Shown here piece after piece: positions 49,234 to 58,009 of a DNA stretch of 64,000 bases. Every line of letters begins with the position of its first letter. Positions within the stretch are counted from its first letter, which is position 1. The position numbers and the translations under genes were made by a program. Origin of the DNA: Octopus vulgaris (taxonomy: Eukaryota). The notes beneath the pieces were generated by a model, which worked only from the letters and a program-made list of their open reading frames with translations, had not been told where the DNA came from and did not search any database. The stretch lies in assembly GCA_951406725.2 (NCBI GenBank), contig OX597826.1, forward strand, positions 61,628,001 to 61,692,000. Direction: 5' to 3'.

Positions 49234-49789
49234 GAGTGAGAGAGCAGTTCATGCCATCAAGGTGACACTGGGGTAAAATATACGAAGCCCAATATACCCA
49301 TCATGACTACCCGTCTGATAAAGGTACACAAGGCACATGCATCACAACCATATGTGCGCGACATGGTGATCTCATATCAAGATAAACAGCACATGACCTT
49401 GCAGGTGGGGCCCAGTTAGAATTTTCTTCAGGTTGAGTAGCCCATCCCGCTCAAACGGTCTCTGAATAAGGGTTGTTTAAGGATGTTGAAAGAACCACCC
49501 ATGTTTCCAGAGGCGAACTATTCAAACCCCAAAGAATCCCTCTCAACACATGGCTATGATGCTCCCCCACTACTTCTGCTCGTGATCAGAAATGCACATA
49601 TCGTCAGCCACTAAGGGACATGCTCAACTGGTTAAGGTCAAACAACTGACAAGCAAATCTGTGGTATTGAGCAGAATATTTGCTGTAGCCCATCTTTTAT
49701 ACCAAGACAAAACAATGTACATGATAACACTTCCAATCAGTTAAGATCAGAAGCCATGAGAGCCACTGCCTGGTACTGCATCAGGGCAT
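49234..49789 (-). mobile_element. ~555-bp non-coding element inserted in (TAA)n
   Basis: (ATT)n abuts both ends, a second copy lies at 17205-17668, and there is no ORF. Confidence 0.8.
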
Positions 49790-52700
49790 TTATTATTATT
49801 ATTATTATTATTATTATTATTATTATTATTATTATTATTATTATTATTATTATTATTATTATTATTATTATTATTATTATTATTATTATTATTATTATTA
49901 TTATTATTATTATTATTATTATTATTATTATTATTATTATTATTATTATTATTATTATTATTATTATTATTATTATTATTATTATTATTATTATTATTAT
50001 TATTATTATTATTATTATTATTATTATTATTATTATTATTATTATTATTATTATTATTATTATTATTATTATTATTATTATTATTATTATTATTATTATT
50101 ATTATTATTATTATTATTATTATTATTATTATTATTATTATTATTATTATTATTATTATTATTATTATTATTATTATTATTATTATTATTATTATTATTA
50201 TTATTATTATTATTATTATTATTATTATTATTATTATTATTATTATATTATTATTATTATTATTATTATTATTATTATTATTATTATTATTATTATTATT
50301 ATTATTATTATTATTATTATTATTATTATTATTATTATTATTATTATTATTATTATTATTATTATTATTATTATTATTATTTATTATTATTATTATTATT
50401 ATTATTATTATTATTATTATTATTATTATTATTATTATTATTATTATTATTATTATTATTATTATTATTATTATTATTATTATTATTATTATTATTATTA
50501 TTATTATTATTATTATTATTATTATTATTATTATTATTATTATTATTATTATTATTATTATTATTATTATTATTATTATTATTATTATTATTATTATTAT
50601 TATTATTATTATTATTATTATTATTATTATTATTATTATTATTATTATTATTATTATTATTATTATTATTATTATTATTATTATTATTATTATTATTATT
50701 ATTATTATTATTATTATTATTATTATTATTATTATTATTATTATTATTATTATTATTATTATTATTATTATTATTATTATTATTATTATTATTATTATTA
50801 TTATTATTATTATTATTATTATTATTATTATTATTATTATTATTATTATTATTATTATTATTATTATTATTATTATTATTATTATTATTATTATTATTAT
50901 TATTATTATTATTATTATTATTATTATTATTATTATTATTATTATTATTATTATTATTATTATTATTATTATTATTATTATTATTATTATTATTATTATT
51001 ATTATTATTATTATTATTATTATTATTATTATTATTATTATTATTATTATTATTATTATTATTATTATTATTATTATTATTATTATTATTATTATTATTA
51101 TTATTATTATTATTATTATTATTATTATTATTATTATTATTATTATTATTATTATTATTATTATTATTATTATTATTATTATTATTATTATTATTATTAT
51201 TATTATTATTATTATTATTATTATTATTATTATTATTATTATTATTATTATTATTATTATTATTATTATTATTATTATTATTATTATTATTATTATTATT
51301 ATTATTATTATTATTATTATTATTATTATTATTATTATTATTATTATTATTATTATTATTATTATTATTATTATTATTATTATTATTATTATTATTATTA
51401 TTATTATTATTATTATTATTATTATTATTATTATTATTATTATTATTATTATTATTATTATTATTATTATTATTATTATTATTATTATTATTATTATTAT
51501 TATTATTATTATTATTATTATTATTATTATTATTATTATTATTATTATTATTATTATTATTATTATTATTATTATTATTATTATTATTATTATTATTATT
51601 ATTATTATTATTATTATTATTATTATTATTATTATTATTATTATTATTATTATTATTATTATTATTATTATTATTATTATTATTATTATTATTATTATTA
51701 TTATTATTATTATTATTATTATTATTATTATTATTATTATTATTATTATTATTATTATTATTATTATTATTATTATTATTATTATTATTATTATTATTAT
51801 TATTATTATTATTATTATTATTATTATTATTATTATTATTATTATTATTATTATTATTATTATTATTATTATTATTATTATTATTATTATTATTATTATT
51901 ATTATTATTATTATTATTATTATTATTATTATTATTATTATTATTATTATTATTATTATTATTATTATTATTATTATTATTATTATTATTATTATTATTA
52001 TTATTATTATTATTATTATTATTATTATTATTATTATTATTATTATTATTATTATTATTATTATTATTATTATTATTATTATTATTATTATTATTATTAT
52101 TATTATTATTATTATTATTATTATTATTATTATTATTATTATTATTATTATTATTATTATTATTATTATTATTATTATTATTATTATTATTATTATTATT
52201 ATTATTATTATTATTATTATTATTATTATTATTATTATTATTATTATTATTATTATTATTATTATTATTATTATTATTATTATTATTATTATTATTATTA
52301 TTATTATTATTATTATTATTATTATTATTATTATTATTATTATTATTATTATTATTATTATTATTATTATTATTATTATTATTATTATTATTATTATTAT
52401 TATTATTATTATTATTATTATTATTATTATTATTATTATTATTATTATTATTATTATTATTATTATTATTATTATTATTATTATTATTATTATTATTATT
52501 ATTATTATTATTATTATTATTATTATTATTATTATTATTATTATTATTATTATTATTATTATTATTATTATTATTATTATTATTATTATTATTATTATTA
52601 TTATTATTATTATTATTATTATTATTATTATTATTATTATTATTATTATTATTATTATTATTATTATTATTATTATTATTATTATTATTATTATTATTAT

Positions 52701-56060: not shown

Positions 56061-58009
56061 TATTATTATTATTATTATTATTATTATTATTATTATTATT
56101 ATTATTATTATTATTATTATTATTATTATTATTATTATTATTATTATTATTATTATTATTATTATTATTATTATTATTATTATTATTATTATTATTATTA
56201 TTATTATTATTATTATTATTATTATTATTATTATTATTATTATTATTATTATTATTATTATTATTATTATTATTATTATTATTATTATTATTATTATTAT
56301 TATTATTATTATTATTATTATTATTATTATTATTATTATTATTATTATTATTATTATTATTATTATTATTATTATTATTATTATTATTATTATTATTATT
56401 ATTATTATTATTATTATTATTATTATTATTATTATTATTATTATTATTATTATTATTATTATTATTATTATTATTATTATTATTATTATTATTATTATTA
56501 TTATTATTATTATTATTATTATTATTATTATTATTATTATTATTATTATTATTATTATTATTATTATTATTATTATTATTATTATTATTATTATTATTAT
56601 TATTATTATTATTATTATTATTATTATTATTATTATTATTATTATTATTATTATTATTATTATTATTATTATTATTATTATTATTATTATTATTATTATT
56701 ATTATTATTATTATTATTATTATTATTATTATTATTATTATTATTATTATTATTATTATTATTATTATTATTATTATTATTATTATTATTATTATTATTA
56801 TTATTATTATTATTATTATTATTATTATTATTATTATTATTATTATTATTATTATTATTATTATTATTATTATTATTATTATTATTATTATTATTATTAT
56901 TATTATTATTATTATTATTATTATTATTATTATTATTATTATTATTATTATTATTATTATTATTATTATTATTATTATTATTATTATTATTATTATTATT
57001 ATTATTATTATTATTATTATTATTATTATTATTATTATTATTATTATTATTATTATTATTATTATTATTATTATTATTATTATTATTATTATTATTATTA
57101 TTATTATTATTATTATTATTATTATTATTATTATTATTATTATTATTATTATTATTATTATTATTATTATTATTATTATTATTATTATTATTATTATTAT
57201 TATTATTATTATTATTATTATTATTATTATTATTATTATTATTATTATTATTATTATTATTATTATTATTATTATTATTATTATTATTATTATTATTATT
57301 ATTATTATTATTATTATTATTATTATTATTATTATTATTATTATTATTATTATTATTATTATTATTATTATTATTATTATTATTATTATTATTATTATTA
57401 TTATTATTATTATTATTATTATTATTATTATTATTATTATTATTATTATTATTATTATTACTATTATTATTATTATTATTACTATTACTATTATTATTAT
57501 TATTATTACTATTACTATTATTATTATTATTATTACTATTATTATTATTATTATTATTATTATTATTATTATTATTATTATTATTATTATTATTATTATT
57601 ATTATTATTATTATTATTATTATTATTATTATTATTATTATTATTATTATTATTATTATTATTATTATTATTATTATTATTATTATTATTATTATTATTA
57701 TTATTATTATTATTATTATTATTATTATTATTATTATTATTATTATTATTATTATTATTATTATTATCATTATTATTATTATCATTATTATTATTATCAT
57801 TATTATTATTATCATTATTATTATTATCATTATTATTATTATCATTATTATTATTATCATTATTATTATTATCATTATTATTATTATCATTATTATTATT
57901 ATCATTATTATTATTATCATTATTATTATTATCATTATTATTATTATCATTATTATTATTATTATTATTATTATTATTATTATTATTATTATTATTATTA
58001 TTATTATTA
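56061..58009. repeat. ~1.95-kb (ATT)n array with ACT variants and a 15-bp higher-order block
   Basis: ACT variants at 57460-57540; ATC(ATT)4 repeated 13 times at 57766-57960. Confidence 0.97.

Follow-up and report, generated by a model that had tools for sequence, protein, structure and literature searches.

A 64,000-bp stretch of the Octopus vulgaris genome (contig OX597826.1, positions 61,628,001-61,692,000; below, the window) contains a non-LTR (long terminal repeat) retrotransposon of the Dong/R4 type, called below the LINE (long interspersed nuclear element), inserted between two very long arrays of the trinucleotide TAA. The features of this locus and of the comparison loci are listed in Table 1, where L-numbers denote fetched stretches of the same genome holding comparison copies.

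The LINE starts at position 2012 of 4048 in the full-length copy of its family. Over its 2,037 bp it has no substitutions relative to the copies in L053 and L034, and its last 401 bp are 100% identical in all 40 matches scored. Two 1-bp indels, located near 55943 and 55794, are private to it; both are frameshifts and both are absent in the 14 closest copies shown. Thus this is a very young copy, truncated and broken. A preliminary description of the locus spoke of a young, near-intact segment encoding a reverse transcriptase (RT) and a restriction-like endonuclease (RLE). The youth and the RT-CCHC-RLE content are borne out, whereas near-intact is not an apt term for a half-length element with two frameshifts. 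The open stretch matches RVT_1 with E 5.7e-12, and its nearest solved relatives are R2 proteins (E 1.6e-15).

Both TAA arrays are the longest microsatellites of the window, as had been described, and their sizes of about 4.2 kb and 1.95 kb are confirmed in the assembly; all array lengths given here are assembly lengths. The longer array has a longest perfect run of 3,594 bp, four phase slips of 1-2 bp and no substitutions. It adjoins the 3' end of the LINE, but since its far side is bounded by the 5' start of another young element within TAA, named S, it cannot be assigned to the LINE tail alone, and the earlier view of it as the element's 3' side holds for adjacency and not for sole ownership. 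The array on the 5' side reads, starting from the element, (TAA)467, a 27-bp unit with TAG variants repeated about three times, (TAA)77, a 15-bp unit with a TGA variant repeated 13 times, and (TAA)20.

Table 1. Features of the window and structures found at comparison loci
Feature	Position	Strand	Remarks
Short mixed ATT/ATC/ACC microsatellite	48949..49235	-	at the 3' end of S
S, 555-bp non-coding repeat	49236..49790	-	young, abundant; flanked by TAA at either end, on the LINE's strand
(TAA)n array, 4,228 bp	49790..54017	-	from the 3' end of the LINE to the 5' start of S
Dong/R4-type non-LTR retrotransposon (LINE), 5'-truncated, youngest subfamily	54020..56056	-	3' half of a 4.05-kb family
3' untranslated region (UTR), ~100 bp	54020..54122	-	doubled A-rich unit, the marker of the youngest subfamily
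Open stretch of 562 amino acids (aa)	54123..55811	-	RT from the GDTLSP box on (YMDD), thumb, CCHC knuckle, RPD..D..K restriction-like endonuclease
5'-side (TAA)n array, 1,950 bp	56060..58009	-	~1,400 bp perfect beside the element, periodic variant units beyond
Short repeat, high-copy and decayed, at the outer end of the 5' array	58010..58190	+	147 matches in fetched stretches, ~87% identity
Old RLE retrotransposon, C-terminus fragment	58323..58589	-	35% identity to P0002 1133-1223, E 1.6e-10
5'-terminal tandem copies, full-length elements	L079 964-1080; L040 8900-9158; L072; L061; L038; L170		
5'-terminal tandem copies, truncated elements	L054; L077; L206; L211		
Tandem truncated units with TAA spacers	L035 878-7734; L046 2226-9204; L225 2449-7293		
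Arrays in the 1.67-1.96 kb length cluster	L036; L047; L071; L076; L078; L082; L086; L048; L054; L207; L225; window		

The family and its insertion sites

Full-length copies of the family carry natural open frames of 1,131-1,226 aa. The longest, in L079, matches RVT_1 with E 1.2e-32 and has the YMDD box. The CxxC..H..C and PD..D..K patterns are kept in all 12 aligned family proteins, and a Pfam scan of the full-length family protein gave no family of the apurinic endonuclease (APE) type. The top Atlas match of N-terminal residues 95-190 is Myb_Rap1 at 0.85, under the 0.9 mark and thus only a lead; a W..Y..W..L motif in the N-terminal region is kept in the 12 aligned proteins.

The 2.8-Gb genome contains 9,265 exact tail junctions of the family. 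TAA was found 5' of 38 of 48 copies picked without regard to the flank, and the adjacent arrays lie on the element's strand in 14 cases out of 14. This strand-fixed context upholds the earlier suggestion of Dong-type targeting of (TAA)n and, like the order of the domains and the Myb-like lead, agrees with the account of R4/Dong elements in PMC7998251 and PMC3812793. Taken together, the features support a predicted Dong/R4-type TAA targeter, an element of a known kind, the placement being by features and not by a tree. No homologue named Dong or R4 occurs among the 120 listed homologues.

The clade includes Dong of Bombyx mori, DongAg, DongBg and an ostracod Dong (PMC3812793, PMC7998251), and the R4/Dong literature reports the (TAA)n target for most insects, molluscs and cnidarians. 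The octopus family resembles these elements in having a single open reading frame (ORF), an RT with a C-terminal RLE and the (TAA)n target; a Myb-like N-terminus without zinc fingers is a lead only. On the other hand, a 5' ribozyme similar to that of the hepatitis delta virus (HDV) was shown for B. mori Dong (PMC3774820), whereas Rfam detects none in the octopus family: the region L082 840-1150 gave no Rfam ribozyme family at E up to 10, although divergent forms may escape Rfam. A recent study of O. vulgaris (PMC13282606) describes recently active Dong-R4 elements, with five families and 1,129 near-full-length young insertions covering 4.73 Mb. The insertions average about 4.2 kb; in size and youth these families match the window family, and they may include it. 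The main text of that paper contains no occurrence of TAA and does not mention flanking arrays.

A second Dong-like family was observed in L034 (1-1570), L223 (5000-8460) and L207 (from 5214 onward). Its proteins are 56-59% identical to those of the first, its copies are 94-97% alike, and TAA arrays adjoin the end of its 3' UTR, which differs from that of the first family.

Long arrays and their junctions

A perfect tail of at least 183 bp was found at 71 of the 9,265 3' junctions (0.77%), all of which were fetched; 17 of them reach 1 kb, and the longest has 5,058 bp. The window junction falls outside this set because of a slip at the junction, and thus 71 is a lower bound. For comparison we used an unselected set of 48 copies, picked irrespective of length in 40 stretches from the first 16 Mb of contig C1. 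Here the median array is 57 bp on the 3' side and 68 bp on the 5' side (paired p = 0.11 for 38 copies, the ten without a measurable 5' array having been dropped before the test). Typical TAA flanks are thus about 60 bp and symmetric, and the 3' excess expected from tail addition is absent in these copies. Their only kilobase array, of 1,955 bp in L207, lies on the 5' side. Among the 30 best-matching young copies, one tail exceeds 1.5 kb and 29 are under 300 bp. The window is a rare extreme and does not represent what the element normally produces. Nesting does occur, though to a modest extent: the 3' array is shared with a following LINE or S copy in 9 of the 48 cases. Each of the two longest arrays stops at a truncated copy of another repeat, these copies being 98-99.6% identical.

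Long arrays favour recent insertions. Of the 18 copies whose 3' array measures at least 500 bp, 13 have the marker of the youngest subfamily, versus 4 of 41 short-tailed unselected copies (Fisher p = 3e-6). Copies shorter than 200 bp were left out of the age test, by which L086 and L063 were lost. Nearest-neighbour divergence, a measure biased by sampling in a way that the subfamily marker is not, is 0.15% and 1.09% in the two groups. Within the 41 unselected copies, age and tail length are not correlated (rho -0.16, p = 0.32). Long tails are spread over at least four sub-lineages defined by single-nucleotide polymorphisms (SNPs) among 55 young copies, and thus arose independently. This scatter led us to reject inheritance of a 1.8-kb tail from a single master copy. 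No dependence of array length on the length of the neighbouring element could be seen by eye.

A background of 599,900 bp of evenly spaced sequence was used for arrays without elements. In this sample the 36 free arrays have a median of 44 bp, and the 14 that touch a LINE or S are longer, with a median of 84 bp (p = 7e-4). Insertion into free arrays in proportion to their length predicts 30 bp per side, and the observed means are 64 and 78 bp.

The long arrays are not confined to the 3' side. At 6 of 20 loci a long 3' array is accompanied by a 5' array of at least 500 bp. Long 5' arrays contain amplified variant units: the 15-bp and 27-bp units of the window, (AGT)31 in L034, (AAC)276 in L040/L228, and (TAC)4 together with (ACT)5 in L223. 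In L054 and L042 variant units stand between the 3' end of the element and the long pure block.

The 5' ends of the elements have a structure of their own. Of 11 full-length copies 6, and of 136 truncated ones 4, start with two to eight tandem copies of their first 22-37 bases, the unit being 23-30 bases long in the full-length ones. The count omits 19 copies that lack a TAA run within 350 bp, and some truncated copies sit in two loci and were counted twice. The tandem copies share one start and end at different points. As far as can be judged from sequence, recurrent priming and release at the 5' junction should leave just such a footprint, and the shared boundary would fit RNA- and DNA-templated re-priming alike. 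Some S copies have partial 5' duplications resembling those of the LINE (L118, L119).

Finally, at three loci a single truncated unit is repeated in tandem five to eight times, the repeats differing by 0-3 mismatches. The spacers measure 211-350, 228-328 and 217-1,756 bp; the cluster in L225 adjoins an assembly gap. Since the units are nearly identical and the spacers are variable, arrays longer than 200 bp can change length without a new lineage.

Origin of the kilobase arrays

The explanation that we prefer, and to which we give about an even chance, is that the kilobase arrays grew by slipped, repeated DNA-templated synthesis at fresh junctions, during or after integration, and then decayed. 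The nuclease would nick the TTA strand and cDNA synthesis would be primed there, an ordinary insertion leaving some 60 bp of TAA per side. Recurrent priming at the 5' junction, always from the same fixed start, would produce the short tandem copies of the element's beginning, and a slipping primer that sits on TAA would add hundreds of units. Alternatively, host replication or repair may slip on the nicked pure array and add as many. The slipping polymerase could be either the element's RT or that of the host. Long pure arrays would later shrink or become interrupted, hence their scarcity beside older copies. Growth to kilobases is likely a rare accident of insertion and repair and not a built-in tail-adding step.

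The preliminary description had proposed that the element or its insertion repair may lengthen the array, one of the routes being telomerase-like copying of the tail. The age bias and flanks about twice as long as expected argue for the link itself; the telomerase-like route is disfavoured, and the insertion-repair route, which we infer, fits better. In the former, the RT would copy the (UAA)n end of its RNA again and again and so write kilobase arrays on the 3' side. It predicts long 3' arrays of the kind seen, mostly pure starting at the junction, of independent origin, with a bias to young copies and often on one side only. The machinery can be seen to reiterate short templates at the 5' end, and slippage on short 3' repeats has been proposed for UnaL2, while the I element ends in TAA (PMC3747384). 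However, more than 99% of junctions are short-tailed, as are all but one of the best-matching young copies, and unselected copies lack a 3' excess. Moreover, a UAA template cannot supply the variant units amplified in 5' arrays, nor can it explain L054 and L042, where such units separate the pure block from the 3' end, or the wide range of spacers, 217-1,756 bp, between tandem copies of one truncated insertion. The 5' arrays, variant units, interrupted 3' blocks and variable spacers thus favour DNA templates, and slipped DNA synthesis at fresh junctions accounts for the data better than a telomerase-like RNA tail, which we regard as quite improbable. A decidedly unlikely explanation, in our view, is that host slippage makes rare and short-lived kilobase TAA arrays anywhere, and the element lands in them by target size, so that only recent insertions are caught there. 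Indeed, both sides are long at 6 of the 20 loci, several arrays contain two or three elements, the genome is rich in long microsatellites, and the random 600-kb sample is compatible with some hundreds of element-free kilobase arrays. On the other hand, length is divided between the 5' and 3' sides far from uniformly, which rejects random insertion into a long array that already existed (normalised values below 0.2 at 11 of 20 loci; Kolmogorov-Smirnov p = 0.002, n = 20), and the arrays touching elements are longer than the free ones, each side having more than twice the expected 30 bp.

Several observations weigh against growth by slipped DNA synthesis. The 5' side is shorter than 500 bp at 14 of the 20 loci with long 3' arrays, and most long 3' arrays are pure straight from the end of the element, both as tail addition predicts, in loci that had been selected for a pure 3' tail. 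The window copy itself has no 5' duplication. Many arrays are common to two elements, the partner being S or a member of the second Dong-like family, so that assignment to the 5' or 3' side is often ambiguous. Private substitutions in the young subfamily show no difference between tail classes (0.67 versus 0.83 per kb). Perfect (AT)n arrays of at least 183 bp constitute 3 of 543, near the 0.77% at element junctions, and the absence of such lengths among the 46 AAT arrays in 600 kb excludes little, as that comparison is underpowered. The comparison copies were drawn from a single contig, within its first 16 Mb, and the array lengths are those of the assembly. Three raw-read runs contained no read on the unique part of the right flank, and two of them none on the 5' end of the family, so that they probably lack this family; the contig runs X1, X2 and X5 contain the flank or the family but do not span an array. 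Lastly, 11 of 26 measured arrays crowd oddly into 1,670-1,955 bp, above a gap in the distribution (scan p = 0.0016 versus lognormal), and identical perfect lengths occur at unrelated loci on different contigs (1,743 bp twice and 1,734 bp twice). Later extensions gave further arrays of 1,756, 1,843 and 1,888 bp.

The last points lead to a possible, although doubtful, explanation: the animal itself would have far shorter arrays, pure TAA runs having been inflated or standardised by base-calling or assembly. More frequent hits at young insertions would then be due to their purer flanks or to heterozygosity. Apart from the length cluster and the coincident lengths, this is suggested by recurring blocks of 830-890 bp. 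A perfect (AAC)n block of 830 bp (L228 5-834), flanked by TAA blocks of 836 and 888 bp, lies upstream of the full-length copy in L040 that has eight 5' repeats; it is either a real amplification of a variant or miscalling, and recalls the miscalling of repeats in long reads (PMC9414165). PMC8486125, in its available part, is silent on kilobase arrays. The two private indels of the window copy, unaccompanied by substitutions, and the slips in its array resemble a poorly supported consensus, and one of the tandem clusters stands beside an assembly gap. Against inflation are the periodic higher-order variant units extending over 500 bp, which are structured and hard to invent, and the few substitutions by which tandem units differ from each other. 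In addition, the ten other commonest motifs yield no perfect array above 300 bp among 1,261, save the AAC block, and the strong subfamily bias would require an extra assumption. We do not claim that lengths are quantised near 840 bp, since the period scan only reflects a two-humped distribution.

A bolder form of slipped synthesis, which we consider rather unlikely, is that the Dong-type RT is a stuttering polymerase, which realigns at template boundaries and copies once more a final stretch of a few to a few dozen bases. It would leave the tandem copies of the 5' end and, at either junction of a few percent of new insertions, kilobases of TAA. If so, the retrotransposon makes microsatellite in bursts, enlarging the target for itself, its sister family and the 555-bp passenger, and the R2-like template jumping would be linked to telomerase-like repeat synthesis.

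Parts of this picture have parallels in other systems. Slippage on the template of 3' repeats is proposed for eel UnaL2 (PMC3747384) and reported for the Drosophila I factor. As in the octopus family, a short tandem repeat stands at the element end and its number can change during reverse transcription. Unlike it, the I factor and UnaL2 are APE-type elements and the changes are confined to the 3' side. Reportedly, the I-factor experiments gave a few repeat units rather than hundreds. The 5' junctions of Drosophila R1 and R2 have imprecise second-strand priming, microhomology, extra bases and duplications of 16-27 nucleotides (PMC2718515); however, R1 and R2 duplicate target DNA once, whereas the octopus family duplicates its own 5' end, up to eight times. 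Tandem dimers of transposable elements are known to expand into arrays, and target preference stacks elements (PMC5932611). The copy-number expansion in L035, L046 and L225 is similar, but the microsatellite spacer of variable length seen in these clusters is unmentioned in the available part of that paper.

Thus a Dong element with its TAA target, slippage on short 3' repeats and tandem expansion of stacked elements are already known. New are the kilobase arrays biased to the youngest subfamily, their independent origins, the variant arrays on the 5' side and the reiteration of the 5' end, with lengths taken from the assembly alone. In the literature covered, of which subscription papers are a small part, we found neither kilobase arrays next to young Dong copies nor a 5' end reiterated in several copies described.

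The observations provide a countable set of at least 18 loci with kilobases of pure microsatellite beside very recent insertions, and footprints of repeated priming at the junctions of about half of the full-length copies. If growth at fresh junctions is real, insertion of a retrotransposon triggers rare runaway repeat expansion, and this could be tested as the origin of a share of the genome's microsatellites. As natural intact open frames exist, repeat addition by an RLE-type RT can be tested directly. If the lengths are artefactual, they flag a systematic error of long-read assemblies at TAA repeats.

Neighbouring repeats in the window

The repeat S is likely a non-autonomous passenger. The genome contains 2,428 candidates, of which 40 were scored at 98-100% identity; the copies in L091-L120 are mostly full length and likewise 98-100% identical. 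Its derivation from a piece of the LINE was rejected, as the similarity is no better than E 3.3, and so was its identity with a known RNA, since Rfam gave no family, only an A-rich chance match. The mixed microsatellite at its 3' end is an older landing site.

Beyond the 5' array, the decayed repeat on the opposite strand is one that we take to be an octopus SINE (short interspersed nuclear element). The old RLE fragment further on has the same orientation as the LINE, with a decayed ATT run at 58217-58243. Elsewhere in the window, 184-bp repeats stand in tandem at 25273-25827 (three copies) and 41136-41502 (two copies); their unit resembles what is presumably an abundant SINE. A 143-bp repeat occurs in three tandem copies at 27875-28307, and a degenerate, short TTAGGG-like run was observed at 20836-20896, in the interior of the contig.

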